A stretch of 58,976 nucleotides of DNA from Candidatus Bipolaricaulota bacterium (GCA_938084765.1 CALKFO010000065.1:1-58976), one strand, 5' to 3'. Positions 9,251-53,382 are shown, numbered from the stretch's first letter. Notes: generated by a model from the letters alone, not told the origin. Numbers and translations are program-made.

Positions 9251-9259
9251 GATCCCCTC

Positions 9260-10239: not shown

Positions 10240-10856
10240 CGTAGGACCTCCGCCACGGCGCGGAAAACCTCCTCTGGAGCGCGGTCCGCCCGCACCCGCC
10301 GCAGAAGTCCACGCCCCTCATAGTAGGCCACCAAGGGGGCAGAATCCCGCATGTACACCTCGAACCGACGGGCCACCACCTCGGGTTTGTCGTCCTCCCG
10401 CTGGAGGAGGGCCCCGCCGCAGCGGTCGCATTTTCCGGGCTCTTTGGGGGGCTGGGTCACGAGATTATAGACTGCACCACACTTTTCGCAGATACGCCGG
10501 CTGGAGAGGCGCCGCACCACCTCCTCCCGGTCCACCTCCAGGAACACCACCACGTCCACGGTGGTGAAGCGCTCCAAACCCTCGGCCTGAGCCACCGTGC
10601 GGGGGAAACCGTCGAACAACACCCCTTTTTGGGCGTCCACCCGCTGCTGGACGAGGGAAAGGATGACCTCGTCGGGGACGAGCTCGCCGCGGGCCATGTA
10701 GCCCCGGGCCAGTTCGCCCAGCGGGGTGCCCTTGGCCACCTCCTCCCGCAGCATATCGCCGGTGGACACGTGGAGGAACCCGAAGGCCTGCACGAGGCGG
10801 CTGGCCACGGTGCCCTTTCCCGCGCCCGGCGGCCCAAGAAGCACCACGTTCTTCAT
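10236..10856 (-). CDS. adk: adenylate kinase with zinc-binding lid
   Basis: LLGPPGAGKGT P-loop. Lid shows RRICEKCGAVY...CDRCGGALLQREDD. Confidence 0.93.
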   Translation of the reverse strand: MKNVVLLGPPGAGKGTVASRLVQAFGFLHVSTGDMLREEVAKGTPLGELARGYMARGELVPDEVILSLVQQRVDAQKGVLFDGFPRTVAQAEGLERFTTVDVVVFLEVDREEVVRRLSSRRICEKCGAVYNLVTQPPKEPGKCDRCGGALLQREDDKPEVVARRFEVYMRDSAPLVAYYEGRGLLRRVRADRAPEEVFRAVAEVLR

Positions 10857-36554: not shown

Positions 36555-38800
<2,246 letters not shown>

Positions 38801-38827: not shown

Positions 38828-39901
38828 TTACAAAACCGTGTTTCTTTGGGCTTGAATGGCTACTGCGAGGCTAGCCAATGCATCCTCCGGTGTGACCAAC
38901 GGGGCCCTCCCTTCGAATATTGCTCCAACGAAATCCCTCATGAGGGCCTGGACAGCGCGTTTGTATTCATCCTGGCGTGCCGGACAGCTAACCTCCGCCT
39001 GAATTTGGACCCAAGAGCCATAGGTTCCGAGGACTTCTGGGGGCTTTCCTAGCATGTGTTGTAACAACGCCAATTGATTGGGGGCAACGAGACCAAACAG
39101 GATAAGCCGCACGGGGATCCATCCTTCCAGGATCATTTGCCCACGAGTTAGCCCTAAATGGACAGTGGTGCGTTCTGCACACCGTGGGCGATCGAAACTA
39201 TGGTAAAAGCTGGCGAAAACCTGGTCTCCATATTGCACCACCGCTGCTACACGATCAATGCGACCATGCGCTCCTGGAAATGCATAGCCTTGAACAAAGG
39301 TAGGCACACCTCCAGCCAATTGGTTGCACAAATCAAAAAAGTGTACTCCATGCTCTACATGGATGCCGCCGCTCTTCGCTAAGTCCCAAAACCAATGATG
39401 GGGATCCAGTCCATCTTGCGTGGCCAGGTTGATAAGCACAAAAAGTTGAAACTCCCCCAACACTTTTTCCTTGACTAGGCGCAGCACAAGCTGGTACAAA
39501 GGGTGAAAGCGTAGAACATAATCGACAGTGAGGAGGACCCCGCTTTGGGAGGCAGCCTCTATCAAGGTTTCGGCCTCCTTAAGGCTTATTGCTAGGGGTT
39601 TTTCCACAACTACATGTTTGCCGGCTTGAGCGGCCTGCACGGCCATGGTGGCATGGAGGTAGGGGGGCGTGGCAATGACTACCACAGCTACTTCGGGGTC
39701 CTCAAGCATATCCTCAAATTTCTCGTAGATTTTTGTGTTTTTCGAAGTGAAGGCACGGGCCCGGTGTTGGTCAGCATCGCATACGGCTGAAACCTTCACC
39801 TCTTTCATTTCCTCATACGCTGCTAACAAAAATTGGCCAAACCGTCCCAAACCGACAATTCCGATACCTAGTGGCTGCCGCTTATGCTGAATAGCGCACA
39901 T
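38828..39901 (-). CDS. Gfo/Idh/MocA family NAD(P)-dependent oxidoreductase
   Basis: N-terminal Rossmann [12 protein letters not shown], plus ...[31 protein letters not shown] (EKP motif). Confidence 0.8.
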
Positions 39902-40802
39902 AGTCTAGAAGCTCCTTTAAAGGCACGGTAGCTAAGCCGATAACATGATCCGCGCCACCATAAAACACGTAGACGATATCACCTACCAGAATATTTGCAC
40001 AGCTAAACACCACGTTGGGCACGTTCCCCTGAAGCTCCCAAATCGTAGCGGGCCAAAAGACGGGATCTCTGGGGCGAGCGATCACCCGGCTGGGATCATC
40101 TAAATCTAAAAGTGCTACACCAAAGCGATAAATGCGGTTTTCGTCATACGCATGGTAAAAGAGAAGCCAGCCGTATTCGGTCTCAATAGGAGCCCCGTTT
40201 GCCCCCACACAGACGTTATCCCACCAGTTATCCGGTCTTGGTCCTAAAAGCGGACGCATTTTTTCACGCGGCCAGTGAACCAGGTCCTCGGAGAAGGCCA
40301 ACCAGATCCAAGGACGTGGTCGATGCAGGGCAACATAGTGTCGGCTAATACGGCGCGGGAAAAGAACGTGATCCTTGTTATCTTCCCCTGTCACTATCGG
40401 GCCGAGGCGCTTCCATTTCACAAGGTTTTCGCTGCAAGCCAGCATGGGGGTGACCATTCCACCAGCTAAAACAGCTCCATTATCTGCTGGGCCGAAGGCA
40501 GTATAGGTCATGTAAAAGACGTCATCAATCATGACCACACGAGGATCCTCCACACCCCAGGCTTCCCAAGAGTTTTCTGGCACCAAAACCGGTGCTCGCA
40601 AGCGATTCCAGTGGATCCCATCCTCACTAACTGCGTAGCCGATGCGGCTTATAAAATCCAAACCTTGCGCACGGTAAAACATATGAAAAAGCCCCCGATG
40701 ATAGATGACACCAGGGTTGAAAACGTGCAGACATTCCCAGGCTGACAGAGGATCCGGGACCAGGATCGGCGTATCCTTTGCGCGTTTCAACATGCTTTCC
40801 AT
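39882..40802 (-). CDS. glycoside hydrolase family 130 protein (beta-mannoside phosphorylase/hydrolase fold, DUF377)
   Basis: ...[19 protein letters not shown].....[13 protein letters not shown]...PVL.P....[19 protein letters not shown].... and ...[13 protein letters not shown]. Strong RBS AAGGAGGGAG. Confidence 0.8.
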
Positions 40803-40819
40803 GTTCTCCCTCCTTCAGG

Positions 40820-41662
40820 CTATGTGGAGATCACAAGGGAAACCCCTTGCACAAACTTGCGGCTGAAAATGAGGAACACAAGGACGATGGGGAAGGTAAG
40901 AAGAACACCTGCGGCATATAAGGGGCCAGGGTAGCCACCATAGGGGCCAAACATTGTGGTCAAAAGCACGTTCAATGTTTGCTTGGCTGGATCACGCACC
41001 ACGATCATGTCCCACAGAAGTTCAATCCAGCGCTCCATAAACAAGAAGAGAAAGACAATGGTTGTCACGGGTCGAGCAATGGGGATCATAATGCGAAAGA
41101 TGATGCGCAGTTCTCCAGCACCATCTATGCGTGCTGCCTCCACTACTTCCTTTGGAACAGAACGGAAAAAGTTCGCGTACATGAAAATGGCCCAAGTGCT
41201 TACTAGGCCCGGCAGGATCATGGCCAGGTACGTGTTGTAAAGCCCCATGGCGCGAATGAGCAAGAAAGTGGGGACAAGAAGAATAATCCCAGGATAGAAC
41301 ATGTGGAACAAGATGAAATTATGAACGATGCGCCGACCGTGGAAAGAAAGCACCGCAAGGGCATAGCCGACGAAAGCACCAAAAATGACACGGCTGAAGG
41401 TGACAACACTTGCCACCAAGGCGCTGTTTCCCAACGCACGGAGCCAGGGACGGGGTAAGGTGGCAGCCCCACCAGCAAATAACCATTGGTAAGAACGAAA
41501 GCTCAAAGAGGTCGGGACAAAGACGCGATCCACCTCATGCCACGGAGCCAAGGATTGCAGCAACATGTAAAGGTATGGCGCAATCATTACCAAGAGCACA
41601 AGCGTGGCCAGAATGTAAAGCATCAGATTTTTGGTGTTTTTCCTGCTTTTCGTTAACCTCAT
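40820..41662 (-). CDS. carbohydrate ABC transporter permease (MalG-like)
   Basis: Six hydrophobic segments and the EAA loop EAARIDGAGELRIFFRIMIP. ATG 41662 follows GAGGAG, which is preferred to the track start at 41695. Confidence 0.85.
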   Translation of the reverse strand: MRLTKSRKNTKNLMLYILATLVLLVMIAPYLYMLLQSLAPWHEVDRVFVPTSLSFRSYQWLFAGGAATLPRPWLRALGNSALVASVVTFSRVIFGAFVGYALAVLSFHGRRIVHNFILFHMFYPGIILLVPTFLLIRAMGLYNTYLAMILPGLVSTWAIFMYANFFRSVPKEVVEAARIDGAGELRIIFRIMIPIARPVTTIVFLFLFMERWIELLWDMIVVRDPAKQTLNVLLTTMFGPYGGYPGPLYAAGVLLTFPIVLVFLIFSRKFVQGVSLVIST

Positions 41663-41672
41663 TGGTGGCTCC

Positions 41673-42551
41673 TCAACGAAATCCTTTCCGTACACCCCAA
41701 GACTCCACCAGTCGCCGAATAATGAGAACGCTTACAAACGTGGCCAGGGCATTCAAAACTGCCACCGTAGCTCCATACCCTGCGCGAAATCGCTCGAAAG
41801 CTTGGTAGTAAATCTCCAATTGCCAAGTATATGTCGCGAATCGAGGGCCTCCCCCAGTCAGCACATATGGTTCGGTGAAGATTCCAAAACAGAGTCCAAC
41901 CGCGAGGATTAACACCGTATAAAAAGCTGGATACAAAAGGGGAAGCGTTATTTTACCGAACTGAGTCAACGCTCCAGCCCCATCCAAAGCCGCAGCTTCG
42001 TAGAGCTCGCGCGGGATATTTTGGAGTCCGGCAAGGAAAATCAAGGCGTAATAACCGGAGAGCTTCCAGACAATCATGGCGCTTATCACGAGGGTGGCCC
42101 AAGCGGGCTCCCGTAACCACCGAGGAGCTGAGCCAAATGTAGCACGCAAAAATGCATTAAACGCGCTGTCATAAGAAAGAACCCCGCGCACAACCAAACT
42201 GATGGCTACCCCCGAGGCCAAATAGGGCAGGAAAAACCCCACAGCGTAAAACCACTTCAGACGCGGGAGATGATGGACGATCAACGCTAACCCCAAGGAG
42301 ACTACAACGACAGCGGGAACAATAGCGGCCATAAATTTATAGGTGTTCACAAACGCATGAAGTACGCGTGTACTACGCAAAGCCTCCTGAAAATTTCCAA
42401 GCCCCACATAGATCCGCACGGGAGCAATGAGATTCCAATCAAAGAGCACAAGCGAGAGACTCCAACCAAGCGGGATGAGGAAGAACAATACTGCAGTGAG
42501 AAGGTAGGGGCTGGCCAAAAGCCAGCCCCGGAGCTCTTTTTGGAGTTTCAC
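41673..42551 (-). CDS. carbohydrate ABC transporter permease (MalF-like)
   Basis: EAA loop YEAAALDGAGALTQFGKITLPLL, with a polytopic profile. Confidence 0.85.
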   Translation of the reverse strand: MKLQKELRGWLLASPYLLTAVLFFLIPLGWSLSLVLFDWNLIAPVRIYVGLGNFQEALRSTRVLHAFVNTYKFMAAIVPAVVVVSLGLALIVHHLPRLKWFYAVGFFLPYLASGVAISLVVRGVLSYDSAFNAFLRATFGSAPRWLREPAWATLVISAMIVWKLSGYYALIFLAGLQNIPRELYEAAALDGAGALTQFGKITLPLLYPAFYTVLILAVGLCFGIFTEPYVLTGGGPRFATYTWQLEIYYQAFERFRAGYGATVAVLNALATFVSVLIIRRLVESWGVRKGFR

Positions 42552-42557
42552 GGCCGA

Positions 42558-43838
42558 TTACTTCAAAACCGTCCTAACCGCGGCCTTCCACGCGGCCCAG
42601 CCTTCCTCGGGGGTCAAGTCCCCCACCAGCACTGGGTAGATGCACTCCAGCCCCATGAGTTCCTGGATTTGTACATACTGATAGTGAGCGATGGGGGGCA
42701 CAGCATAGGGGATGTTCGCGGCATATGCCAAAAGCGCTGGCTCCTTTTCCTGGATGTATGTAATGAAAAGAGGATTGGTACTCACATCATCACGTGCCGG
42801 CAACATCCCCGTGATCTGAACCCAAGCAAGATCGTGCTCGGTGTTAGACAAAACCCAGCGAATGAAGTCCCACATAGCCTGGCGTTGCTCTAGCGTGGCC
42901 TGAGCGTACATCACCACCCCCTTCGCATCGGCAAAGGTAAAAACAGGAGCATCCGCTGGATACCAGTCGGGCACAGGCGGTGGCGTCAAAACAAACGTCT
43001 TGCCGTATACCAGCTCAGGGTAATTCTCCTTCCACCACGGGAAGGTCCAGGGACCAAGCACTGTCATGATTGTTTTCCCGACCTCGAAGCCAGCGGCTAA
43101 CGGTTCCGTGATCAACAACTTTTTGTCCCGTAAGGTTTTGAAAAAGCGCAGCGCTTCCACGGCAGCTTTATCGTCCGCAACGATTTCCGCGCCAATGAGG
43201 AAAGGCTGCCCTCCGCTTGCTGCATAATAAAACACGAAGAAGTCAAACCAGCGCTGCCACCAGGTCGGCACCTCAAGCTCGCTTCTTAACCACAAGAATT
43301 TATCAGGGTGTACGGCTTTAAGGCGCTCTCCCACAGCCAGCACCTCGCTATAGGTGCGCGGAGGTTTGTCATAGCCCAGCTCCCGCAGGATGTCGATGCG
43401 CCAAGCGATAAGCATCGCGTTCACATACATCGGTATGATGTAATAGTTCCCATCTGCAAAGATCCAGCTCTTCATAGTCTCTTCCATGTTCCGTGCTTTC
43501 ACCAGATCTTCCCAGCCAGGAAAAGCGTTCCATGGCACAACAGCCTGAGAACGAACGAGTTCGTCGCCGAATCCGATGAAGATGTTCTCGGAAGCGGTGG
43601 GCGCCACCCCGCCAGCAATGGCTGCAAGGATTCCTGCTTCAGAGGTGGGCGTCTCCGGGATCGGACTGACAGTGATCTTCACTCCAGGATGCTCCGCCAT
43701 GTACCTCTCAGCCATGCGCCGCCAAAACACCTCCTGAGAGGGGTTGGGCGCGCTCCAAAACGTTATTTCAATTTGGGCCATCCCTACAAACCCGAGAACC
43801 AACAAACCAAAAGCCCATACTTTCCACACTTCTCGCAT
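42558..43838 (-). CDS. extracellular solute-binding protein of a carbohydrate ABC importer
   Basis: Signal-like N-terminus (VWAFGLLVLGFVGMAQ). It is 426 aa with a family-1 SBP-like pattern (ITFWSAPNP...VFW..MA..Y...PGVKI). RBS is GGGAGGTG. Confidence 0.8.
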   Translation of the reverse strand: MREVWKVWAFGLLVLGFVGMAQIEITFWSAPNPSQEVFWRRMAERYMAEHPGVKITVSPIPETPTSEAGILAAIAGGVAPTASENIFIGFGDELVRSQAVVPWNAFPGWEDLVKARNMEETMKSWIFADGNYYIIPMYVNAMLIAWRIDILRELGYDKPPRTYSEVLAVGERLKAVHPDKFLWLRSELEVPTWWQRWFDFFVFYYAASGGQPFLIGAEIVADDKAAVEALRFFKTLRDKKLLITEPLAAGFEVGKTIMTVLGPWTFPWWKENYPELVYGKTFVLTPPPVPDWYPADAPVFTFADAKGVVMYAQATLEQRQAMWDFIRWVLSNTEHDLAWVQITGMLPARDDVSTNPLFITYIQEKEPALLAYAANIPYAVPPIAHYQYVQIQELMGLECIYPVLVGDLTPEEGWAAWKAAVRTVLK

Positions 43839-43849
43839 AGGTCACCTCC

Positions 43850-45538
43850 CTACTGACCCCTGGCTTGCCAATCCACCACCACTCCACCCACCACGAGCTT
43901 TCCTTCCACGTATTTCGCTTCCTCCCCGGCGGGGATCACGACGAGCACTGTTGCGGAATCGGGGGGTAAAGCCAGCCGAACAATCCCACGGACATCCCGG
44001 AGAAGAAACTTCTTGGTCACTGTGTCGTATAGATCTTTAGGTGTTATTCCTAAGTCCAGCTCGATTTCCTTTGTTTCGCTGTACGGGTTATAAAAAAGGT
44101 AAGATGGATAAGCTGGACCGCGGAAATAGTCGGTGGCCAGAAGATCGACTTGCAAAATTCCTTCGACGTTGGTACGGTTCACCACAGCCCCAAATATCCC
44201 TGCGTGTGATCCAGAATAAAGAGCGAAATCGGTCTTAGCCCACTTGTTGCGCATCGCGTCACCGGTGGCGTAAGGACTGACCACGTCCCAACCCACCACA
44301 CCCCAGCGGCGCAAGCCTTCGTAAGGGATGACGCCCTGGGAGGCTTCCGCCCAGAACGCAGAGGATTGATGTTTAGGGGAATGATATGGCGCATAGAAAA
44401 GGCGCGCGTTTACAGATGCATGAAGGAGCCATTTCCCAATCGCCTGGGCAAACCGCGGGTCATAGCGAACCAACGGCACCAACGGCTCAGCCCACACAAA
44501 GGTGTTCATGGCGAACGCGTAACCCTCCTGATCGGTGAGGCTCCCAATTAACCCGTCCACACGCACGCCATCCCACTCCCCGGAGAGCACGCCCCAGCCT
44601 GGCCGAGTATCGGAAATTCCAAAACACCACCGCACGAAAACTTCTACAGAGTAATCCCTGCCTTGTTCAGCATTGAGCCTGGCTGCTATCAGCGCTCCGT
44701 AAGGAAGAAGAAGCTCATAAAGGGGGTTATGACCTTCTTCCACCAGGCGTTGCAGATATGCCAGTGCTCGTTCTGCGCCGCTCAAAAAGCGGGGCTCTTC
44801 AAACACCACATAAGCCATATACAACAGCCAAGCCACTCCTGCTGCGGCGTCAGGTTCTTTCCACCAGCGCAAGGTCGGGGTCATCCGTACAAAGTCAAAA
44901 GCTTGAAAAGAAAAATCAGGCACGCCACCTTTATCCGTGAGCACGTCCAGGGCCTCCAACCAACGCTCCGCCACGATGCGCGTGATCTCCAACATGCTCA
45001 AATCCTCGGGGCCTTTTTTCGCTTGAGCGAGCTCAGGATATTGGTAAGTCAAAATATAAAACAGGATGCTCGGGTATATTTCGTACCAAAAACTGTTGCC
45101 CGTGACAGTGTTAGGGTTGTTGAGCACAAGGTTCTGGCCGTTCGCTCGGTTGAAGAACTCCTTTTGCATGGTCACCAAATCGAAGCCGCGCCAGCAGCTC
45201 ATGTCCAAACCCACGAGCGTAGCGCTACGCACGGCGGCGATAACATTGATGGCCTCCTGAGCGCCGTCACGACCATATCGGTGGTCTCCGACGTACGCAG
45301 GAAGAGCTAAGTGATCTAAACCGAAGTTAACGCCGCGCCGATCCCACCAGCTCAAGGGAAACAGGTCCCCTTGAGCTGTCCAGTCAAACACCAGCGCAGT
45401 GTAATCCTGGGCCACCTTTTTCCAGTCTCGCAGTTCCAAAACAGCGGGAAGATTAGGGAAAGCCTCCACAACCGGAGGGAGAATCTGTTGTGCACACGCG
45501 TTCAGCGCCAACAACGCTACAACAACGTACTTGGACAT
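43850..45538 (-). CDS. lipoprotein of unknown family, possibly an (alpha/alpha)-barrel glycan-active enzyme
   Basis: ATG 45538 after AGGAG gives MSKYVVVALLALNAC (lipobox-like LNAC). The 562-aa product matches no motif I can assign. It is rich in W/Y/F and sits between the SBP and a small secreted protein in the glycan locus. Confidence 0.55.
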   Translation of the reverse strand: MSKYVVVALLALNACAQQILPPVVEAFPNLPAVLELRDWKKVAQDYTALVFDWTAQGDLFPLSWWDRRGVNFGLDHLALPAYVGDHRYGRDGAQEAINVIAAVRSATLVGLDMSCWRGFDLVTMQKEFFNRANGQNLVLNNPNTVTGNSFWYEIYPSILFYILTYQYPELAQAKKGPEDLSMLEITRIVAERWLEALDVLTDKGGVPDFSFQAFDFVRMTPTLRWWKEPDAAAGVAWLLYMAYVVFEEPRFLSGAERALAYLQRLVEEGHNPLYELLLPYGALIAARLNAEQGRDYSVEVFVRWCFGISDTRPGWGVLSGEWDGVRVDGLIGSLTDQEGYAFAMNTFVWAEPLVPLVRYDPRFAQAIGKWLLHASVNARLFYAPYHSPKHQSSAFWAEASQGVIPYEGLRRWGVVGWDVVSPYATGDAMRNKWAKTDFALYSGSHAGIFGAVVNRTNVEGILQVDLLATDYFRGPAYPSYLFYNPYSETKEIELDLGITPKDLYDTVTKKFLLRDVRGIVRLALPPDSATVLVVIPAGEEAKYVEGKLVVGGVVVDWQARGQ

Positions 45539-45564
45539 GTTCCACGGTCTCCTGAAGGTTAAAG

Positions 45565-45591
45565 GCGGGGGAGGAACGAAACCTCCCCCGC
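45565..45591 (-). other. intercistronic GC-rich stem-loop (10-bp stem, 7-nt loop)
   Basis: GCGGGGGAGG-aacgaaa-CCTCCCCCGC lies between the stop at 45603 and the ATG at 45538. No clear U-tract follows on the minus-strand transcript, so it could be an attenuator or processing/stability element rather than a full terminator. Confidence 0.45.
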
Positions 45592-45602
45592 GCGACTCCC
45601 CA

Positions 45603-46169
45603 TCATTGAGTGCGATAGACAATGCTGATGCCATCAACCGAAACGCTGCCGCCCACACCCCAGAACCAAAGCCTTATAGCGATGATAGGGGATTTGGGAA
45701 TGGCCCGGATGACCCCAATGGGAGCGAACTCACGCAGCGCGTCGGCCAGCACAATCTCCACATTGCCAGAGAGGTTGTTATCTCCGATGAGGTAAGTTCC
45801 CCAGCCTTCGACGGGTGTAAACACATCTGGTTTCAGACCGCGCAGATGCGCCTTGAGCGTCCATTTTTCTGTAGGTCGTACGTTGTGAAGAAGGATAACG
45901 GGGTTCTTGGACATATCTATAAGGAGCCATGGGCTGATGACGCCACCGCCCCAAGGTTCACCAAAAGTGATCCCCACCACGGCCTTTCCGTCGACCAGGC
46001 TCACCGAGCCCGCTCCCAGGAACTCGCCGCTTGCGGGGTCCAAGAAAGGCTGCCAAGCTGCGGCAATGGCTTGCGCAGGGAAGTTGTAAACCAGGAGATC
46101 CTCAGCCCAGACCACCCATGAACCGACCAAGACCAACGCCGACAAAATCAAACCAACCTTTTTCACCAT
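45603..46169 (-). CDS. small secreted protein of unknown function (beta-rich, possible carbohydrate-binding module)
   Basis: ATG 46169 after AGGGGGTGA. Signal peptide MVKKVGLILSALVLVGSWVVWA. It is the first gene downstream of the LacI-type operator. Confidence 0.55.
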   Translation of the reverse strand: MVKKVGLILSALVLVGSWVVWAEDLLVYNFPAQAIAAAWQPFLDPASGEFLGAGSVSLVDGKAVVGITFGEPWGGGVISPWLLIDMSKNPVILLHNVRPTEKWTLKAHLRGLKPDVFTPVEGWGTYLIGDNNLSGNVEIVLADALREFAPIGVIRAIPKSPIIAIRLWFWGVGGSVSVDGISIVYRTQ

Positions 46170-46235
46170 AAAGGTCACCCCCTATGAGTTTTTGCTGCGG
46201 CAGTGGAGAACTCCTGTTTCCAGCGCATCACCTCC

Positions 46236-46296: not shown

Positions 46297-47283
46297 CTAA
46301 CATCCACAAGAGGCGCGAATCGTCAACGTTATAGGCAAAACGGAAAGCACGGGGACGTCACCACCACGCAAAAGTCCGAGGAGGTTTTGTGCTGCTACTT
46401 TACCCATCTCCACGCGCGGCACCCGCACACTCGTCAGCGGCGGCTGGACAAGCGTGGCCAGCGCCCCGTCATCAAAACCCACCACAGCGATATCTTCCGG
46501 CACTTTAAGCCCAACCTGTGTTAAGGCGCGGATGGCCCCCACAGCCATGAAATCATTGGCTGCAAAGATTGCGGTGGGGAGGTCAGACAATTTGAGAAAC
46601 TTTTCCATTGCAATCCGATCAGAATCGGGCCGCCGCCCGCCTTCGATCACCCAGCTTTTCCGCACAGCAATTCCCCGCTCCTTGAGCGCACGTCGATAGC
46701 CGACAAACCGCTCGTGGAAACTAGGGTCCGCAAGGGTTTCAGCAATGAAGGCGATACGCTTGTGCCCGTGTTCGAGAAGATGCAAAGTGGCAAGTCTGCC
46801 CCCTCCTAGGTTGTCCCCCACCACAGAGACCACGTTAGGAAGATGATAGTCCACCAGCACCACTGGCAACAACCTTTTCACCTCTTCCACCAGTTTGGAC
46901 TGGATGTCAGTGCCTAGAAAAACCACACCATCCACACGGCTTTCTTTGATGCATTGAGGAAGCGCGTGATTTCGCAACGTTGCGAAAACCACGTGATACC
47001 CGTGTTTTGTCACCTCGGCCTCGATAGTTTCCAAAATCACCCCGTAAAAAGAGCGCTCGTCCAAAGGCAAATGGCGCTCGTGTATAACCACAGCGATCGC
47101 AAAAGTGGAACGCGTGGCTAGAGCCCGGGCCAAAACGTTGGGTTGATACCCTAGCTCCTCCACCGTTTTTCGAATACGTTCACGTGTGGCTTCGCTGATG
47201 CGGCCTTTCCCAGACAAAGCCCGGGACACTGTGGACGGAGAAACCCCAAGAAGGCGGGCGATGTCGTGAATAGTCAAACCCAT
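46297..47283 (-). CDS. LacI-family transcriptional regulator
   Basis: ATG 47283. N-terminal HTH MGLTIHDIARLLGVSPSTVSRALSG.G.IS..TR..I, followed by a periplasmic-binding-protein-like sugar-binding core. Confidence 0.9.
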   Translation of the reverse strand: MGLTIHDIARLLGVSPSTVSRALSGKGRISEATRERIRKTVEELGYQPNVLARALATRSTFAIAVVIHERHLPLDERSFYGVILETIEAEVTKHGYHVVFATLRNHALPQCIKESRVDGVVFLGTDIQSKLVEEVKRLLPVVLVDYHLPNVVSVVGDNLGGGRLATLHLLEHGHKRIAFIAETLADPSFHERFVGYRRALKERGIAVRKSWVIEGGRRPDSDRIAMEKFLKLSDLPTAIFAANDFMAVGAIRALTQVGLKVPEDIAVVGFDDGALATLVQPPLTSVRVPRVEMGKVAAQNLLGLLRGGDVPVLSVLPITLTIRASCGC

Positions 47284-47297: not shown

Positions 47298-48041
47298 CTA
47301 GCTTACACCCCGTGAACAACGACGGTGGGGCCTAAAGAAACAACGGGGTCGAACGCCCATCTGCCTCACAGCACGGGGCAATTGGGAAAGGTCACCAATG
47401 CATAGGTGAGCCGCATGATAGGGTGTGAGAGGCGTTTGCCACTGATAGGGCCCCAAAAGAACGCGCACCGTGTGCAAACCAAGAAGACGAGCAGGGAAAA
47501 CGTCGTGGTCCAAGCGGTCGCCCACCATCACCGCCTCTTGCGGTCGCACATCCAGAGCATCAAGAATGATGCGAAAGAAGAGGGGCAGAGGTTTGGCTAA
47601 ACCCATCGTCTCGGAAACCTCTCGCCAACGAAAATAGCGGAGCAATCCCGCGCTTTCCAAAAGGTCCAAGGCTTTGCGGGGCTGATTGGCCGCCAGAGCC
47701 AAGAGGTACCGCTCGGCAAGCTGCGGAATGACCTCCTTGGCCTCGGGCCGCACGAACACCCCGGGCAGCTCTCTTTGAAACTCTTCGTTTCGCGCGCGAA
47801 ACGCGGAGAGAACGACTTGAAACCGTGCAAAATCTGGACAGAGCAATCGCCAAGTAGCCGAAAGCCAGGGATTGGGCTCACAACGCGCGATCTCTTCTTT
47901 GACCAACCCCGCAAACTCATCCCGCCCAATGGGAACGCCCTGTGCGGAGAGACTACCCACCAAAAGCTCCGTCCATACCGCGTATTCTGCGTCCTCGTTG
48001 AAGACTGGACCGCCCAGGTCCAAGAGGATGGCGCGAATCAT
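47298..48041 (-). CDS. HAD-superfamily hydrolase-like protein (atypical motif I)
   Basis: ATG 48041 overlaps the upstream stop (ATGA). Motif I reads AILLDLGGPVF and motif IV reads VMVGDRLDHDV. Confidence 0.7.
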   Translation of the reverse strand: MIRAILLDLGGPVFNEDAEYAVWTELLVGSLSAQGVPIGRDEFAGLVKEEIARCEPNPWLSATWRLLCPDFARFQVVLSAFRARNEEFQRELPGVFVRPEAKEVIPQLAERYLLALAANQPRKALDLLESAGLLRYFRWREVSETMGLAKPLPLFFRIILDALDVRPQEAVMVGDRLDHDVFPARLLGLHTVRVLLGPYQWQTPLTPYHAAHLCIGDLSQLPRAVRQMGVRPRCFFRPHRRCSRGVS

Positions 48042-49192
48042 TTGATCCCCATCTTCTTCGTGGCGATCTTCTCCGGGAGCATACAGCGGATGGAATCCTC
48101 TGCGCTCACACCTCTGAGTGCGGCCAGGATGCACACCAGCGCATGGCCGATGGCCAAGTGCGCCGTCTGAACCCGCGTGCTTGATGGGCCCTCCGGTTTG
48201 GCATTGCTCTTGATCACCACGTGGGCATATTTCCCCAGCGGGGAATCCAAGTTCTCCGTGATCGCCACCGTGAGAGCACCCTTTTCTCGCGCCAACCGCA
48301 CGGCCTCGTAGACAAACCCTGTTCCACCAGAGGCCGAAACTCCTATAAGCACGTCCTTTTCTGAAACCTGCTGGACGATGAAACGAGCCAATCCGCCTTC
48401 TTCCTCACCGGTGCCCTTAGCGAAGGAGACGGGCAAGGCTTGCGCCATGTTGTTGGTGATGCACAAACAGGGCACACCCGTCTCATAGCATTGGCCAGCG
48501 ATCTCCTCGGCCACCAGGGCCGAAGCTCCCGCGCCCGTGGTCACGATCTTTCCCCCTTGGTCCAGGCGCTCCTTGATGAGCTCAAGGGCTCGCAAAAACC
48601 CAGTTTTCGCCGTGACCAGCGAGGAAAGAATCCCTTCGGCCTCCAGACGCAAGGCCCTTTCTAGCATCTCTCCGGGCGTGTTACAACCCGTGAAATCGTA
48701 TCCCACCATGAACGGACGATTTACATCGATGACCTGACCCACAGTATCGATGAGCACCCGGCCCTTCCATTCATGCTCTTCAAACTCCAACGTCGTGCCC
48801 GGGATATCGCCGATCCGCAAATCCTTCCCGGTCAACCGCGCAATAAGGCTCGTTTTACCGGAGTTAAAAATGCCCAACACCACAACGCGTGCACCCTCGG
48901 GAAAACGGCGTTCGATTTCCGCCACAACGTTGGGCACGTTCTCCCCCGTGAGAAGGGACATCACCGGAAAGTCCTGTCCCAGCTCGCGGTAAATGCTCTG
49001 AACCACAGCCCGGTCCACGAGATCCAGCTTGTTTCCCACCATCAAAAACGGAAGGCCAGCGCGATGAACAGCCTCGAGGAAGAGCTCAAGCGTGGCAATT
49101 TGCGGGTCATAAAGGTTCACAAGGAGGATAGCTCCTGTGGCTCCGCACACCTCAAAGGGGGTGACCAACTTCTTTGTCACGCGGGTGCTCAC
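48038..49192 (-). CDS. fusion protein: circularly permuted P-loop GTPase (G4-G5-G1-G2-G3) plus MurQ/GckR-like SIS phosphosugar-binding domain
   Basis: G4 NKLD (aa 54-57; nt 49022-49033) precedes G1 GIFNSGKTS (aa 107-115; nt 48848-48874), then G2 PGTT and G3 DTVG (aa 149-152). The C-terminal half shows GGKIVTTGAGASALVA...VLIGVSASGGTGFVYEAVRLAREKGALTVAITENLDSPLGKYAHVVI...GPSSTRVQTAHLAIGHAL, which resembles the etherase/SIS pattern. Confidence 0.7.
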   Translation of the reverse strand: MSTRVTKKLVTPFEVCGATGAILLVNLYDPQIATLELFLEAVHRAGLPFLMVGNKLDLVDRAVVQSIYRELGQDFPVMSLLTGENVPNVVAEIERRFPEGARVVVLGIFNSGKTSLIARLTGKDLRIGDIPGTTLEFEEHEWKGRVLIDTVGQVIDVNRPFMVGYDFTGCNTPGEMLERALRLEAEGILSSLVTAKTGFLRALELIKERLDQGGKIVTTGAGASALVAEEIAGQCYETGVPCLCITNNMAQALPVSFAKGTGEEEGGLARFIVQQVSEKDVLIGVSASGGTGFVYEAVRLAREKGALTVAITENLDSPLGKYAHVVIKSNAKPEGPSSTRVQTAHLAIGHALVCILAALRGVSAEDSIRCMLPEKIATKKMGIK

Positions 49193-49236: not shown

Positions 49237-49722
49237 TCAGCCTAACTTGTACCCGAGTTTGCGAAGCAATTCTTTGCGTTCAGCCTGTTCTTTCTCACCT
49301 TCAACACCCTTGGTTTTGATCCCGTCGATCACCCCAAGGACGCCGCGGCCTTGGGAGGTCTCGGCCACGATCACCTCCACCGGGTTGGCTGTGGCACAAA
49401 AAATTCGACACACTTCCGGCACCGCTTTGATCGCATTCAACACGTTGATCGGATACATCCCGCGCATCAAGATCAAAAACACATGACCACATCCGAGGTG
49501 AAGGGCGTTCTTTTTGGCGAGCTCCACAAGCTCAGGATCTGTGCCCGACCACCGCACCAACGCTGGGCCGGACGATTCACAGAAGGCCAAGCCAAATCTC
49601 GCTCCGGGTACGCTGTTGACCATGGCCTCGTGCAGGTCCTCCACGGTCTTGATGAAATGGGCCTGGCCAAGGATAAGGTTCACCTCCGCGGGTTTCTCGA
49701 TCGGCACCACTTTGATCTCCAT
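49237..49722 (-). CDS. adenosine-specific-kinase-like protein family (Pfam 'Adenosine specific kinase' fold)
   Basis: ATG 49722 after AAGGAGG. MEIKVVPIEKPAEVNLILGQAHFIKTVEDLHEAMV.SVPG..FGLAFCE.SG..LVR..G.D.EL..LA..NAL..G.GH.F.I....YPINVLNAIK.VPEVC.I.CATANP.EVIVAE...GRGVLGV.DG matches the family as I remember it. Confidence 0.7.
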   Translation of the reverse strand: MEIKVVPIEKPAEVNLILGQAHFIKTVEDLHEAMVNSVPGARFGLAFCESSGPALVRWSGTDPELVELAKKNALHLGCGHVFLILMRGMYPINVLNAIKAVPEVCRIFCATANPVEVIVAETSQGRGVLGVIDGIKTKGVEGEKEQAERKELLRKLGYKLG

Positions 49723-49866: not shown

Positions 49867-51315
49867 TTAGAGGACAAGGAAAGAAGCGCTGAGGGCCACC
49901 GCAACAAGAAGGGTCGCAAGAAGCGCATATTCCAGGGAAAGCTTTGGCAACGGCCAGGACTTTGTGCGCAGGAAAAGATCGACGAGAAAGCCCGCTCCCG
50001 CGGTCAAAGGCGCTTCGATCCACACTGGCCAAGCATACAGATCGCGGTTCCCCACGAAACCCCAAACCCCAAGGGCCAGGATTCCGCTAGACAAAAGCAG
50101 GACGCCCCCTAGCCTTCCATCCCCTGTTCCCCCGCGAAAAAGCGGCAGGAGCCGGGCCAAGTAAGCAGCGGTGCCCACGCCCAAGAGCAGGAGAAAAGCC
50201 TTCGCCCAAAGAGGCTGGTTGGCGCCGAGACAAGCTTTAGCAGTGAACCCAGCGAGCGGGGGGAGACCCACGAGGGCCCAGGCGCCCAGGGCCAAGCCCA
50301 GAACAGCTGGCCAGGGAACGCCTTTTGCAAGCTCCGAAATGGTCCGCGTTCCCCTTCGCTCCACCGCCTCGCCTGCGCTCAGAAACAAAAGGCCTTTGCC
50401 CAACCCGTGCGCCACCGCATAGATGAGGGCTCCGAATTCCGCTCCCAGACCGAGACCCAAAAGCATGAACCCTAGCTGCGAGACGGTGCTGTGCCCCAGC
50501 AAGATCTTGAGGTCGGTTTCCCTTAAGGCGTACAGCATCCCTCCCACGCCGCTGATCACTCCCAAGCTGAGCAAGGCCGGTCCCACCGGAAACGCCTCCG
50601 CCAGGCGGGCCAGGGTGAGCACGCCCAGTTTGACGACGAGCCCGGAAAGGAGAACGGAGACCTCTGTGGGGGCTTGGCCATGGGCTTGGGGGAGCCAAAG
50701 TCCGAGGAGAAACACCCCGGTCTTCACGGCCGCTCCCGCCAGGAGGAGGCCCGCTCCGACGCGCACCGCAGTGTCGAATACCCCGCCCCGCGCCAGGGCG
50801 CTCACCGCCAGAGCTCCGGTGCGCCCGTAGATCAGACCCAGCCCAAACAGGTACAAGGTCATCCCCACCCCAGCCAAGATGAGGTAGCGCAGGGCCGCCC
50901 AGAGCGCAGCGCTCCGGCCCTCTTTGGCCACAAGGATCACAGAAAGAAGCGAGGAAAACTCGAGAACCACGTACAAGTTGAAAAGATCGCGGGAGATGCT
51001 GCCAGCAAGGCATGTGCCCACAAGGAGGGTGATAAGGCTATGCCCCAGGGAATCGCGGGACCAGGCGTGGAGGAGAACGGTGGCATGAAGGAAAAGCGCC
51101 AGGCCCCAAATGCCCAGGGACCAACCATCCCCAGCGACGGCGATGCCCCAGGGCCAGTCGCCCACGAACCCCTCGGGGAACGCGGGCGCCCACAGGGCCA
51201 GGCTGATCGTGCCGGAAACGAGGGCCACCACCGCGGTCTCCCGGCCGCGGGCCAACACCAACCCCAGCATGCCCAGCGCAAAATAGGCCAACACCCCGAC
51301 GAGGGCAGCGCTCAT
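49867..51315 (-). CDS. mrpD: MrpD/MbhH-type antiporter-like subunit (NuoL/M/N family)
   Basis: Internal ATG 51315 after GGAGGAAAG forms an ATGA overlap with mrpC. The product is 482 aa and polytopic, with ...AAVKTGVFLLGLWLPQAHGQAPTEVSVLLSG..VKLG. Confidence 0.85.
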   Translation of the reverse strand: MSAALVGVLAYFALGMLGLVLARGRETAVVALVSGTISLALWAPAFPEGFVGDWPWGIAVAGDGWSLGIWGLALFLHATVLLHAWSRDSLGHSLITLLVGTCLAGSISRDLFNLYVVLEFSSLLSVILVAKEGRSAALWAALRYLILAGVGMTLYLFGLGLIYGRTGALAVSALARGGVFDTAVRVGAGLLLAGAAVKTGVFLLGLWLPQAHGQAPTEVSVLLSGLVVKLGVLTLARLAEAFPVGPALLSLGVISGVGGMLYALRETDLKILLGHSTVSQLGFMLLGLGLGAEFGALIYAVAHGLGKGLLFLSAGEAVERRGTRTISELAKGVPWPAVLGLALGAWALVGLPPLAGFTAKACLGANQPLWAKAFLLLLGVGTAAYLARLLPLFRGGTGDGRLGGVLLLSSGILALGVWGFVGNRDLYAWPVWIEAPLTAGAGFLVDLFLRTKSWPLPKLSLEYALLATLLVAVALSASFLVL

Positions 51316-51647
51316 CTTTCCTCCAACTTGCGGGAATCCTGGGTATGGCGGTGCTCGGTGAGCACGATCACCAAAGCCAGGGCCAGGGCCAAGGTGGCGA
51401 AGTGAATGACGATGGCAGTAAGAACGAGGGCTTGGGGGAGGGCATCGGCCGCAGGACCTGGGCCCAATCCCACAATGGGTGGCCGCGCTCCCGTTCGATG
51501 AGACAGGGCCACCAGGAACAAAATGCCGCCGCCGGAGGCCACGTTGAGGCCCAACAGCTTCCACACCAAGTTACGGCGCACAACCATCGCCCACATCCCA
51601 AGCGCAGCGGAGGCCACAGCTAGAGCCAGGGCGCTCAAGCTTTCCAC
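51312..51647 (-). CDS. mrpC: MrpC/MnhC (NuoK-like) subunit
   Basis: GTG 51647. 111 aa with three TM segments, ...RRNLVWKLLGLNVASGGGILFLVAL...ALVLTAIVI.FA..A. Confidence 0.8.
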   Translation of the reverse strand: MESLSALALAVASAALGMWAMVVRRNLVWKLLGLNVASGGGILFLVALSHRTGARPPIVGLGPGPAADALPQALVLTAIVIHFATLALALALVIVLTEHRHTQDSRKLEER

Positions 51648-51648
51648 G

Positions 51649-52287
51649 TCACACCTCTCCCCGGGCGGAGGAAAACCGGTGCAGTACAGCCCAGGCACCG
51701 ATGGCCACCTCAAGGGCGATGAGGAGGTTGGCCGTCACGAACGCCGCGGGCGTGCGCAGGCCAAGGATCAAGACCAGGGCGGCCAAGAACACCAGGAGCA
51801 CCACAGCCAAATATTCCAGGCTCTCCAGGCGAGGCTCGTAGAGCTCGGCGCTTACCCGCTCCATTCCTTTGGCCAGGGCCAGCAGGAGAAGGGCGGAGCC
51901 CAGGATGGCGCCGGCGGGGAAACCCCCGCCCGGCCCAAGGTGGCCGCTGGCCGCCACATACAGAGCAAAAACAAGGATGGGACCCAACAACAGGTCAGCA
52001 GAGCGCCGAAGAAGCGGGGTTTCTGAAACCGGAGGAAGTTCGCCTTTCCAATGCAAGCCGACCAGGAGAAAACGCACCCCCACCATGGCCACCACGTAAA
52101 CGAGCACCTCCAGGAGGGTATCCCAAAGCCGCAGGCCCAGGACGATGGCGGCCACGGCGTTGGTCACCCTCCATCCTCGGGCCACAGGGTCAGGATCGGG
52201 GAAATCCGCGCGTGGCCAAAGGCCCGCAATTCCCACGGCCAGAATCCCCACCAATCCTAAAATCCCCAAGGCCAAGAGGAGCTTCAT
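51649..52287 (-). CDS. mrpB: MnhB-domain subunit (MbhE/MbhF-like)
   Basis: ...TNAVAAIVLGLRLWDTLLEVLV (MnhB signature) with additional TM helices on both sides. Confidence 0.8.
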   Translation of the reverse strand: MKLLLALGILGLVGILAVGIAGLWPRADFPDPDPVARGWRVTNAVAAIVLGLRLWDTLLEVLVYVVAMVGVRFLLVGLHWKGELPPVSETPLLRRSADLLLGPILVFALYVAASGHLGPGGGFPAGAILGSALLLLALAKGMERVSAELYEPRLESLEYLAVVLLVFLAALVLILGLRTPAAFVTANLLIALEVAIGAWAVLHRFSSARGEV

Positions 52288-53099
52288 CCTAAGTGCCTCC
52301 GGATAAGCTCGGAAAGCTCGCCTCGTCGCTCCAATTCCCCCAAAAACTCCGCAAAGCTTTCGCGTAGCTCCTCATCCTCGGGGTTCAAGGCGAACGCAAA
52401 GCGATGTTCCCCGGGCAAAAGAGTCGCTTCGGCTCCAGAGAAGAGGTCCCGGGTTTCCCACTCCCGCCAGCGCAAGAGGTCCGTCACGGCCTCGCCCACC
52501 TCACCGCGGGAAAGAGCCCGAGCGAGCTCGTCGGCGTCCTCAAAGAGCTTGCCGTCGGAGCCGAGCCAAGAGGCACCGGGCTCCCCAACCACGGCCCCGA
52601 TGGGACCGCCTCCAAGGCGCACGCGCACAAGGCGGGTGGGCACAAGGCCCTGGGTGTAGACCACCCCGTCGTGGGGGTTGGGCAAAAAGCCGCCCGCTCC
52701 CACATGCGCCTCACCGCTCCGGACAAGGCGGAGGATCTCGGCCCTGGGCACCCAGATGAGCTCCAAATCCCGGTGACACCAGCGTGCGAAGCGCTCCAGT
52801 ATCTCCCATTCCAGGCCGGCAACGCGTTCGCCCTCCGCATAGAGCAAGGGGTAAAGGGGGGAGGCGGCCACCACGAGCTTCCCGGTGCGGCGCAAAGCCA
52901 AAAGATAGACGAAAGTCACAAGTCCAAAGCCGATGGCGGCCTCCGTGAGGGCCACATCAGGAGCGGCTAGGACAAGGTACAGGGCGGCAAGCACCAACGA
53001 GTGCACACCGACCCCGATCACCCCCCAAAGGAGGCGCTTGCGGGTGAGGGCAAAGACGGCCAGCCCGAAGGCCAAAGCGGAGAGGAGCACGGCCATCAT
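52284..53099 (-). CDS. MbhD/DUF4040-like membrane subunit fused to a family-3 solute-binding-protein-like domain
   Basis: ATG 53099. The N-terminal ~75 aa have three TM helices and the signature LAAPDVALTEAAIGFGL. The C-terminal ~195 aa resemble SBP_bac_3 (VVAASPLYPLLY..GERVAGLEWEILERFA....DLELIWVP...IL.LV.SGEAHVGAGG...FAFALNPEDEELRESF..FL.EL...GEL). Confidence 0.65.
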   Translation of the reverse strand: MMAVLLSALAFGLAVFALTRKRLLWGVIGVGVHSLVLAALYLVLAAPDVALTEAAIGFGLVTFVYLLALRRTGKLVVAASPLYPLLYAEGERVAGLEWEILERFARWCHRDLELIWVPRAEILRLVRSGEAHVGAGGFLPNPHDGVVYTQGLVPTRLVRVRLGGGPIGAVVGEPGASWLGSDGKLFEDADELARALSRGEVGEAVTDLLRWREWETRDLFSGAEATLLPGEHRFAFALNPEDEELRESFAEFLGELERRGELSELIRRHLG

Positions 53100-53100
53100 G

Positions 53101-53382
53101 TCAGTCGCGGATCCTGCGTACAAACGCGCCCTTGGCGATGGCATGGGTGGCCAGGGGGCCGGTGAAAAGCACAAAGAGCAAAAGCACGAGCGCAAGCCCA
53201 CCGGTGGCCAACCATCCCTCGCGAATCATGAGCCCGATGAGAAAAACACAGGATCCGCCTACATCAGCCACTCCCGCCACCTGGAGGCGCACATAGGGCG
53301 AGCGGAAGCGGACCATACCTATCCCCCCCACCCAGATCAGGGCCACCCCCAAGATGAGCAAGACTTCCCCCAGGATCCTCAC
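53101..53382 (-). CDS. mrpG: MrpG/MnhG subunit
   Basis: GTG 53382 forms a GTGA overlap with mrpF. VRILGEVLLILGVALIWVGGIGMVRFRSPYVRLQVAGVADVGG...TGPLATHAIAKGA. Confidence 0.8.
   Translation of the reverse strand: MRILGEVLLILGVALIWVGGIGMVRFRSPYVRLQVAGVADVGGSCVFLIGLMIREGWLATGGLALVLLLFVLFTGPLATHAIAKGAFVRRIRD

Follow-up and report, generated by a model that had tools for sequence, protein, structure and literature searches.

The stretch of DNA analyzed here, 58,976 nucleotides from a Candidatus Bipolaricaulota bacterium (GCA_938084765.1, CALKFO010000065.1:1-58976; hereafter the window, from whose first letter all positions are counted), carries on its minus strand a gene whose product fuses a circularly permuted GTPase (cpGTPase) to a sugar isomerase/phosphosugar-binding (SIS) domain. 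This GTPase-SIS gene (48038..49192 (-), taken from the listing of open reading frames, ORFs) encodes 384 amino acids, starts with GTG, is preceded by the ribosome-binding site (RBS) GGAAGGTGA, and ends with a TGA that shares an ATGA with the ATG of the downstream gene, which codes for a HAD-superfamily phosphatase; the two cistrons should therefore be translationally coupled. An earlier interpretation made without any database (the sequence-only reading) had proposed a permuted GTPase at the N-terminus and a MurQ-like SIS domain at the C-terminus. All of the motifs that it quoted are found in the order claimed, including G284-V-S-A-S-G-G-T-G-F-V-Y295 and G335-P-S-S-T-R-V-Q-T-A-H345, and such a set in this order would be far beyond chance.

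The Pfam scan places MMR_HSR1 in the N-terminal half (residues 102-154, 9e-11, 42.3 bits for a cutoff of 21.9) and both SIS_2 (PF13580, residues 188-312, 1.3e-13, 51.6 bits for a cutoff of 27) and SIS (PF01380, residues 272-353, 2e-13, 50.7 bits for a cutoff of 25) in the C-terminal half, all of them above cutoff. RsgA_GTPase (PF03193) is co-linear with residues 21-132 (1.1e-5) and scores 25.8 bits, slightly under its cutoff of 30, which is exceeded by two other family members, P0122 (34.7) and the copy on the viral contig L106 (40.0). In the full-length predicted model (mean predicted local distance difference test, pLDDT, 82; predicted TM-score, pTM, 0.80), a helix of about 40 residues (173-211) runs into the Rossmann-like SIS core. 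The best matches of this model in the fold search, MurQ, MurR, a KpsF-like protein and GmhA, cover the SIS half alone, with TM-scores (TMq) of at most 0.44, and no entry spanning both domains was found in the sequence and fold searches of the Protein Data Bank (PDB).

The N-terminal domain (48683..49192 (-), approximately residues 1-170), defined by the MMR_HSR1 and RsgA_GTPase matches and a domain-only AlphaFold2 (AF2) model, carries the GTPase motifs in permuted order. The G4 motif N54-K-L-D57 (49022..49033 (-)) lies N-terminal to the P-loop and is followed along the chain by a G5-like segment (S79-L-L-T-G-E-N), by G1, the P-loop itself (G107-I-F-N-S-G-K-T114, 48851..48874 (-), with S115 directly after T114), by G2 in switch I (P131-G-T-T134, 48791..48802 (-)), and by G3 in switch II (D149-T-V-G-Q153, 48734..48748 (-)). 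In the alignment of 66 homologues from which we read conservation, N54 and D57 of G4 are invariant and K55 is conserved in at least 90% of the sequences; G107, F109, N110, G112 and K113 of the P-loop, all four residues of G2, and D149, G152 and Q153 of G3 are likewise invariant. The NCBIfam and PDB sequence searches show this stretch to be co-linear with the cpGTPases YqeH, YlqF/RbgA and RsgA/YjeQ. The domain-only model (pLDDT 78.6) gives as its top 21 PDB matches chains of pre-60S and mitoribosome assembly particles, which we take to be the cpGTPases of Nog2/GNL2 type, Lsg1 and a mitoribosomal factor. These cpGTPase matches have TMq values of 0.49-0.62 over 153-195 columns, with 0.57-0.62 over 153-177 columns for the best of the Nog2/GNL2-type, Lsg1 and RsgA matches, and RsgA follows at rank 26, whereas Ras and Rab structures match over about 90 columns only. 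The circular permutation G4-G5-G1-G2-G3 is thus confirmed by sequence, profile and fold, in agreement with what had been claimed from the motif order.

Compared with the cpGTPases RbgA/YlqF, RsgA/YjeQ, YqeH, Nog2/GNL2 and Lsg1, the N-terminal domain shares the motif order, the fold and the P-loop Asn of the K+-stimulated members, but differs in two respects. The RNA-binding anchor is replaced by the SIS domain, which is the sole other domain seen in the Pfam scan and the fold search, neither of which showed any RNA-binding anchor adjoining the G domain. Moreover, a Ras-like Gln153 directly follows the DxxG motif, where most cpGTPases have a hydrophobic residue. An Asn at the G1 position coordinates K+ in cation-dependent GTPases such as MnmE and FeoB; the equivalent Asn110 of the GxxNxGK[ST] motif is invariant, and the GTPase is probably of this K+ type. 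Switch I, where the K-loop would lie, falls in a low-confidence region of the model (pLDDT below 50), as expected for a mobile switch. Owing to Asn110 and Gln153, the domain looks hydrolysis-competent. None of the NCBIfam equivalog cutoffs is reached, with 30.8 bits for YqeH (cutoff 297), 23.7 for YlqF (208) and 25.5 for Der (307).

The SIS domain (48134..48631 (-), residues 188-353, SIS_2 and SIS) contains two strictly conserved loops, and a conserved tail lies beyond it. The predicted phosphate-binding loop S286-A-S-G-G-T291 (48320..48337 (-)) is invariant and aligns with AASGRT of MurQ and STSGNS of GmhA, and the pocket loop K332-P-E-G-P-S-S338 (48176..48199 (-)), also invariant, aligns with the GPE..GSTR signature of MurQ. 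Beyond the domain lies the C-terminal tail T378-K-K-M-G-I-K384 (48041..48061 (-)), in which T378, K379, K380, M381, G382 and K384 are invariant and which, by analogy with the C-terminal tail of GlmS, is a possible lid over the SIS site. A Lys of this tail lies six residues from the C-terminus, as does Lys603 of GlmS, a parallel that is suggestive only. The pocket loops 249-263 and 334-336 have pLDDT values below 50 in the full-length model; active-site lids are often flexible. In the SIS half as a whole, E230, Q234, E237, K259, E263, S286, S288, T291, K332 to S338, Q342, H345 and H350 are invariant, so that the protein has, without variation, all the kinds of Glu, His and Lys on which GlmS, GmhA and MurQ rely.

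The nearest PDB sequences to the SIS half are MurQ (4s12, 1.3e-10) and GmhA (1x94, 4.4e-9), and the fold matches, with E-values of 1e-11 to 1e-8, include MurQ, MurR, a KpsF-like protein and GmhA, with the ligand-sensing SIS domains of MurR and NanR among the neighbors. MurQ (PDB 4s12, 4lzj, 1nri) is the best match in both sequence and fold, over residues 190-343 approximately, and with the SIS domain above cutoff and MurQ-type etherases as its closest relatives, the proposal of a MurQ-like domain holds. The two proteins share the Ser/Thr phosphate loop, the equivalent of Glu114 (E263) and a GPE...S-S/T-R-like segment, but GTPase-SIS has an additional N-terminal cpGTPase and the invariant TKKMGIK tail and does not have the C-terminal domain of MurQ. 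Glu83 (ASEC) and Glu114 (GAED) of MurQ, reportedly the catalytic pair of the Escherichia coli enzyme (Hadi et al. 2008), align with the invariant Gln234 and Glu263, respectively. GmhA, the sedoheptulose-7-phosphate isomerase (PDB 1x94, 2i22, 5lu5), has a SIS core of the same size, and its RIQEVH....H segment aligns with Q342..H345....H350. All four positions of its catalytic/Zn tetrad are invariant in GTPase-SIS: Gln172 and His180 are kept as Gln342 and His350, whereas His61 is replaced by Glu230 and Glu65 by Gln234, and the gene context is one of hexosamine rather than heptose. The SIS pocket would thus be a hybrid, with a phosphate loop and a GPE..SS(T/S)(R/K) segment like those of MurQ and a helix (Q..H....H) like that of GmhA.

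We considered membership in each of these families and rejected it. The three MurQ models of NCBIfam give 62.6, 62.2 and 49.5 bits against cutoffs of 168, 255 and 302, and the Glu83 position is a Gln; the GmhA equivalog gives 40.9 bits against 209, its Glu base is a Gln and its His61 position a Glu. Like the scores, the Glu-to-Gln change rules out MurQ or GmhA membership, but not catalysis. The GlmS model gives 30 bits against a cutoff of 418, and the Pfam and NCBIfam scans show a single SIS domain and no glutaminase domain. Likewise, no helix-turn-helix of the RpiR/MurR type, second SIS domain or GKRP lid was found in the Pfam scan of the window protein, which has the SIS fold alone in common with the RpiR/MurR and GKRP sugar-phosphate sensors.

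The fusion is not a one-off, as might have been supposed, but belongs to a large and tightly conserved family with hundreds of full-length homologues. Our search of 5.8 billion proteins returned 494 matches. Among the best 120 clusters of these 494, all have the SIS architecture, nearly all have the GTPase and none falls under 54% identity to the window protein; most are about 384 residues long and a few are truncated fragments. The closest relatives of the window protein reach 88% identity, and homologues from Ca. Bipolaricaulaceae up to 86%; other named sources are Microgenomates, Parcubacteria and Methylobacter sp. YRD-M1. The architecture is found in hundreds of homologues from Bipolaricaulota, Parcubacteria, Microgenomates, Chloroflexi-like and proteobacterial contigs, and one viral contig, and an archaeal member probably exists as well. 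This taxonomic breadth was pieced together from metagenome loci and a few named proteins; the contig profile scan of genomes, which used a single protein as query, returned close Bipolaricaulota relatives only. A HMMER search of 1.84 billion representatives clustered at 50% identity gave 13 proteins at E-values of at most 1e-30, just one of them an ordinary full-length representative; below these come ordinary SIS proteins, at about 1e-11. A family spanning distant phyla therefore fits into about one 50% cluster. The G1 to G4 motifs, the phosphate loop and the C-terminal TKKMGIK are invariant or nearly so, and of the two halves the SIS half is the better conserved, with a mean identity to the window protein of 72% compared to 57% for the GTPase half. 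The most divergent member is the IMG/VR copy (L106), with 46% identity.

Two relatives, P0123 (772 residues) and P0122 (736 residues), contain canonical inteins (Cys1 ... His-Asn | Ser). The intein of P0123 lies between N110 and S111 in the P-loop (GVFN|SGKT), and that of P0122 between P336 and S337 in the SIS loop (KPEGP|SS); the inserts are homing-endonuclease-like, with LAGLIDADG or NUMOD3/Phage_endo_I matches. Inteins typically home into the most constrained ligand-binding motifs, and their positions in the P-loop and the SIS loop therefore indicate that both ligand sites are likely functional. The two inteins thereby mark both sites as functionally critical.

Both domains are known, and their fusion is visible in databases, yet it is unnamed, unmodelled and unstudied. 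The homologues are labeled only as SIS domain-containing protein or with the JGI composite GutQ / EngB, no dedicated model was found in NCBIfam (the best matches are at domain level and far under cutoff), and our literature searches on the fusion architecture or on a link to the glmS ribozyme found no relevant paper. With generic names, and with no dedicated curated model, solved structure or paper found, the architecture appears to be uncharacterized, in line with the sequence-only reading.

The gene neighborhoods connect this family with amino sugars. We gathered about 100 loci and dereplicated them to 32 lineage groups at 85% identity; the neighborhoods vary widely between phyla and there is no universal operon. 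In 11 representative loci, Rfam (RF00234, gathering threshold) detects a complete glmS ribozyme in the same orientation as the gene, ending 66-170 nt ahead of its start codon, with scores of 37.7-68.9 bits for a cutoff of 37. A profile built from these Rfam matches extends the ribozyme to 22 loci, corresponding to 12 of the 32 groups, with the conserved core segments intact. At least seven of the ribozyme groups have no glmS or glmM within 6-10 kb (L081, L075/L104, L100, L088, L057, L087 and L084), and the genes 3' are convergent or unrelated, so that the ribozyme should act on the GTPase-SIS gene alone in these groups. In two loci (L089 and L093), glmS begins 20-21 nt after the gene, RBS included, giving the order ribozyme-[GTPase/SIS]-glmS. 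This glmS is authentic (MCGIVGY...AKSVTVE), and its closest named relatives, at 78-79% identity, are from Anaerolineae/Chloroflexi, from which we infer that the glmS-operon clade belongs there too. In the L097/L099 lineage glmS lies directly upstream, and glmS adjoins the gene in 4 of the 32 groups overall. A GlmM or GlmM-like mutase adjoins it in 6 of the 32: in a clade of proteobacterial type, GlmM passes its equivalog cutoff in three loci (560-596 bits for a cutoff of 447.55), and in another clade the gene is followed after 17 nt by an archaeal-GlmM-like mutase, within an epimerase/glycosyltransferase cluster. At least one hexosamine link (ribozyme, glmS or glmM) is present in 19 of the 32 groups, scattered over the family tree. 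For a gene picked at random, glmS or glmM would be a neighbor in far fewer than 1% of genomes, and the ribozyme usually occurs as a single copy.

According to a review, the glmS ribozyme is found nowhere but ahead of glmS, in glmS 5' untranslated regions (PMC6765202). The ribozyme-only loci contradict this statement; exceptions may stand in older ribozyme surveys, and the link to the GTPase-SIS family appears to be unreported.

The sole IMG/VR contig that carries the family (L106, IMGVR_UViG_3300028920_001945) is an AT-rich viral contig of 116 kb. Its copy lies in a co-directional nucleotide-sugar operon (2643-10393) with the order epimerase/dehydratase, 297-aa ORF, TylF-like methyltransferase, GTPase/SIS, small GNAT, family 1 glycosyltransferase (GT1), NTP_transferase, B12-radical-SAM protein and epimerase/dehydratase, and its stop and start codons overlap those of its neighbors. 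Judging by its gene content, this cluster would be a nucleotide-(amino)sugar pathway in which GTPase/SIS occupies the slot of the sugar-6-phosphate-forming step.

We consider it very probable that the GTPase-SIS family belongs to hexosamine/sugar-phosphate metabolism. The sequence-only reading had guessed at either a sugar-phosphate-gated regulator or a nucleotide-dependent sugar-phosphate enzyme; both remain live and are now tied by gene context to the metabolism of glucosamine 6-phosphate (GlcN6P) and other hexosamines. The explanation that we favor, with a chance that we put at about even, is a GTP-gated catalytic hexose/hexosamine-6-phosphate module at the entry to the synthesis of uridine diphosphate N-acetylglucosamine (UDP-GlcNAc). 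In such a module, a cpGTPase would be joined by the long helix to a single SIS domain whose pocket shows all the features of a sugar-6-phosphate site. The SIS domain would bind a hexose or hexosamine 6-phosphate through S286, S288 and T291 and would probably convert it by chemistry of the aldose-ketose isomerase/aminase type, the product feeding or salvaging GlcN6P or its precursor fructose 6-phosphate (Fru6P). The GTPase would gate this activity by its nucleotide state, plausibly through nucleotide-dependent pairing of G domains across a SIS oligomer, as in MnmE-type GTPases. MnmE (TrmE) is a K+-dependent TRAFAC GTPase in which dimerization of the G domains drives the enzymatic activity of an attached or partner domain, and offers a mechanistic precedent for a GTPase that gates catalysis, although it works on tRNA, with an unpermuted GTPase and a non-GTPase domain that binds tetrahydrofolate. 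In Bipolaricaulota, where no ribozyme is present, the gene is the middle cistron of a conserved operon, between a putative phosphotransferase (PF04008) and the HAD phosphatase.

The direction of the proposed effect follows from the ribozyme of many lineages, which cleaves itself when activated by GlcN6P. Since an mRNA carrying it is destroyed at high GlcN6P, the protein should be needed at low GlcN6P, and should therefore supply, salvage or promote the synthesis of GlcN6P or a precursor. As a rule, a riboswitch regulon is made up of enzymes or transporters for the ligand that the RNA senses. We favor a catalytic SIS domain because of this make-up of riboswitch regulons, the enzyme-like slot of the gene in the viral and the epimerase/mutase clusters, the invariant polar residues of the pocket and the intein in the SIS loop.

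Several observations weigh against this explanation. The position of the base in MurQ (Glu83) and GmhA (Glu65) is the invariant Gln234, and catalysis would therefore need another base, for example E230, E237 or E263. Regulators and assembly factors, more often than enzymes, have a full switch apparatus, and we know of no TRAFAC GTPase that gates a sugar-phosphate enzyme. The occurrence of the gene in one operon with a complete glmS speaks against a role that merely duplicates GlmS. As for the ligand, it might be Fru6P, mannose 6-phosphate, GlcN6P, N-acetylglucosamine 6-phosphate (GlcNAc6P) or N-acetylmuramic acid 6-phosphate (MurNAc6P). Finally, the lineage of the window, the Parcubacteria clade and two other clades have no ribozyme, glmS or glmM link, and the hexosamine assignment would reach the window copy by homology (55-67% identity, with all key residues identical).

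The replacement of the canonical catalytic Glu by an invariant Gln234, together with complete GTPase switch motifs, would also suit a non-catalytic sensor or activator, in which the SIS domain only senses an amino-sugar phosphate, like that of MurR/RpiR regulators or GKRP, and the GTPase relays the signal to a partner such as GlmS or GlmM, raising hexosamine synthesis at low GlcN6P, as a one-polypeptide analogue of RapZ/YvcJ-GlmR. We regard this as possible and as a serious rival, the one that best accounts for both the co-operonic full-length glmS and the Glu-to-Gln change: where the gene adjoins full-length glmS or bona fide glmM, or shares an operon with one of them, a partner is more plausible than a second enzyme of the same kind, and among the fold neighbors are SIS domains that sense ligands, those of MurR and NanR. 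There is also precedent, with GlmR as a stimulator of GlmS, YvcJ as a GTPase and RapZ as a GlcN6P sensor (PMC6171935). The logic of RapZ/YvcJ with GlmR (YvcK) is indeed alike, a P-loop nucleotide-binding protein with a sugar-phosphate/UDP-sugar sensor tuning GlcN6P synthesis (PMC6171935), but there is no relation in fold, RapZ being built of a kinase-like P-loop and a PFK-like domain, RapZ works through small RNAs, and we detected no homology of these proteins to the GTPase-SIS family. Nevertheless, in the viral nucleotide-sugar operon the protein takes an enzyme-like slot and neither glmS nor glmM lies within 5 kb, the SIS pocket holds more invariant polar residues than binding usually needs, with an intein in that loop, and regulators are rare in riboswitch regulons.

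The resemblance of the N-terminal domain to ribosome-assembly cpGTPases, which are all of its best structural neighbors, raises the question of a role in ribosome biogenesis or translation (like RbgA, RsgA or YqeH), with the RNA anchor swapped for a SIS domain that couples assembly to the status of sugar phosphates or cell-wall precursors. The Parcubacteria gene, located between lepA/divIC/tRNAs and L10 leader-rplJ-rplL, and the retention of the protein in the tiny genomes of the candidate phyla radiation (CPR) would agree with this role. We nevertheless consider it improbable, because no RNA-binding domain is present, the YlqF, YqeH and Der models give 23-31 bits for cutoffs of 208-307, only one clade has the ribosomal neighborhood while hexosamine links turn up in many, and the Methylobacter copy, split by an insertion sequence (IS), must be dispensable there. 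An etherase of MurQ type that recycles peptidoglycan through MurNAc6P and carries the GTPase domain by chance is, in our estimate, more improbable still. MurQ models and structures are the top SIS-level matches, the Glu114 equivalent (E263) and a GPE..S(T/S)R-like signature are retained, and salvage yielding GlcNAc6P would fit repression by GlcN6P. However, the scores of 50-63 bits fall short of cutoffs of 168-302, an invariant Gln stands where MurQ has Glu83, the protein lacks the helical C-terminal part of MurQ and has instead a C-terminal helix like that of GmhA (Q..H....H), and no murP, anmK or nagA neighbors were seen.

Returning to the GTP-gated catalytic module, GlmS offers an instructive comparison: it carries out SIS chemistry on Fru6P/GlcN6P, is the canonical gene behind the glmS ribozyme and is often encoded next to GTPase-SIS. 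GlmS is made of an Ntn glutaminase and two SIS subdomains, whereas GTPase-SIS is made of a GTPase and one SIS domain, and the similarity is at the generic SIS level. In its boldest form, which we put forward tentatively and regard as doubtful in its entirety, our proposal is that GTPase-SIS is the first non-glmS family under direct control of the glmS ribozyme and a GTP-gated enzyme that makes or salvages GlcN6P, or a feeder hexose 6-phosphate, independently of the GlmS glutaminase. It would then constitute a second entry into UDP-GlcNAc in Chloroflexi, CPR, Bipolaricaulota, some archaea and a virus, and the first case of a TRAFAC GTPase gating a sugar-phosphate site.

The family would not be categorically new, since it builds on the cpGTPase, the SIS sugar-phosphate module and the P-loop control of hexosamine synthesis, but it probably takes an unrecognized part in producing the amino-sugar building blocks of the cell wall. 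The step that commits metabolism to peptidoglycan, lipopolysaccharide and other envelope glycans is the synthesis of GlcN6P, and GlmS and its ribozyme are an antibiotic target. A conserved second family behind the ribozyme or beside glmS and glmM points to an overlooked component of hexosamine homeostasis. This matters especially in the uncultivated Chloroflexi, CPR and Bipolaricaulota, in which, to our knowledge, control of the RapZ or GlmR type is not known. It would also widen the roles of permuted GTPases, which, as far as we know, have so far been essentially ribosome-assembly factors. A second family behind the glmS ribozyme, and a permuted GTPase with a role other than ribosome assembly, may both come as a surprise to specialists of riboswitches and of cell-envelope precursors.

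In the window itself, the GTPase-SIS gene is flanked by two operon partners on the same strand. The 5' partner (49237..49722 (-), 161 residues from an internal ATG) belongs to the PF04008 family, named adenosine-specific kinase (Pfam 2.7e-75), and ends 44 nt before the GTPase-SIS start. The 3' partner (47298..48041 (-)) is the HAD-superfamily phosphatase, subfamily IA-like, with Pfam matches to Hydrolase, HAD_2 and Hydrolase_like; its best NCBIfam match, TIGR02253, is under its cutoff. The HAD gene is kept in nine of ten Bipolaricaulota loci, the tenth contig ending too soon, and the PF04008 neighbor is found in all of those for which upstream flank was recovered. The PF04008-GTPase/SIS-HAD trio is thus present, at 75-87% identity, in every Bipolaricaulota locus with enough flank, and is a stable feature of the sampled relatives, not obviously a recent accessory insertion. 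The description of the region as a low-G+C accessory block is accordingly right in its first part, with a G+C content of 0.50-0.58 at 39-50 kb compared to 0.62-0.68 elsewhere, and fails in part on the second, since the trio is conserved in Bipolaricaulota. The Rfam scan of the window gave no match at all, and hence no glmS ribozyme (RF00234).

Downstream of the trio, a LacI-family regulator (46297..47283 (-), Pfam LacI and Peripla_BP_3) heads a mannoside-utilization cluster of low G+C content. This co-directional sugar cluster (38828-46178 (-)) comprises a solute-binding protein, two ABC permeases, a GH130 mannoside phosphorylase, a GFO/IDH/MocA oxidoreductase, a 602-residue protein without family match and a putative secreted protein of 191 residues. 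Reading on from the regulator, the order is two proteins of unknown function, the ABC sugar transporter, GH130 and the oxidoreductase. We rejected a conserved sugar-catabolic operon, as the neighborhoods differ across phyla and the LacI/GH130 cluster is absent beside the trio in the Bipolaricaulota locus L001; not being conserved with the trio, the mannoside cluster is given no weight as functional evidence. A reading as an anti-phage defense or phage gene was also set aside, because the PADLOC defense models gave a single match, LeoA, at P-loop level (residues 101-150, 33 bits), and PHROGs gave only generic SIS families.

Some features of individual loci are worth recording. The Parcubacteria loci (L015, L020, L021 and L046) show the fixed order murJ-lepA-divIC-(x)-tRNAs-[gene]-L10 leader-rplJ-rplL-mraZ-rsmH-ftsL-PBP (penicillin-binding protein), in which the gene, without ribozyme, adjoins the division and cell wall (dcw) cluster. 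In Methylobacter sp. YRD-M1 (L014, CP091424.1, 4217-6921), the gene is cut after approximately residue 60 by the DDE transposase of an IS, which makes it a pseudogene in this cultured strain; next to the N-terminal fragment lies a bona fide glmM in divergent orientation. The contigs of the lineage with glmS directly upstream contain tRNA matches of 108-109 nt (L097 7281-7389 and 2100-2207, L099 4877-4985). The alignment of the match at L097 7281-7389 has insertions of 27 nt in the D-loop region and of 16 nt beside the anticodon loop; ARAGORN, run in bacterial mode, makes no call for it. These long tRNAs are probably intron-bearing archaeal tRNAs, and this glmS-adjacent copy may therefore be archaeal.

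The closest out-group consists of stand-alone SIS proteins that start at the domain boundary (L107 381-1097, L108 3548-4228 and L109 474-1154), encoded in phage-like clusters beside the 7-deazaguanine genes QueD/PTPS, QueC and radical SAM. One further locus (L110, 152-1175) has a divergent GTPase half of 201 residues, in which G3 reads DSPGF without the Gln, followed by a SIS ORF of 142 residues with an 11-nt overlap, and is either a split gene or a frameshifted fusion. We did not retain these split versions as Rosetta-stone evidence, as L110 could be a frameshift and the stand-alone SIS relatives lie in unrelated 7-deazaguanine clusters. At the outer edges of the region discussed here, large hydrophobic ORFs at 49867-53201 (-) resemble, by eye, subunits of Mrp/Mnh-type cation antiporters, and a gene at 37400-38800 (+) encodes a subunit of the V/A-type ATPase catalytic family (ATP-synt_ab and V/A C-terminal domain).

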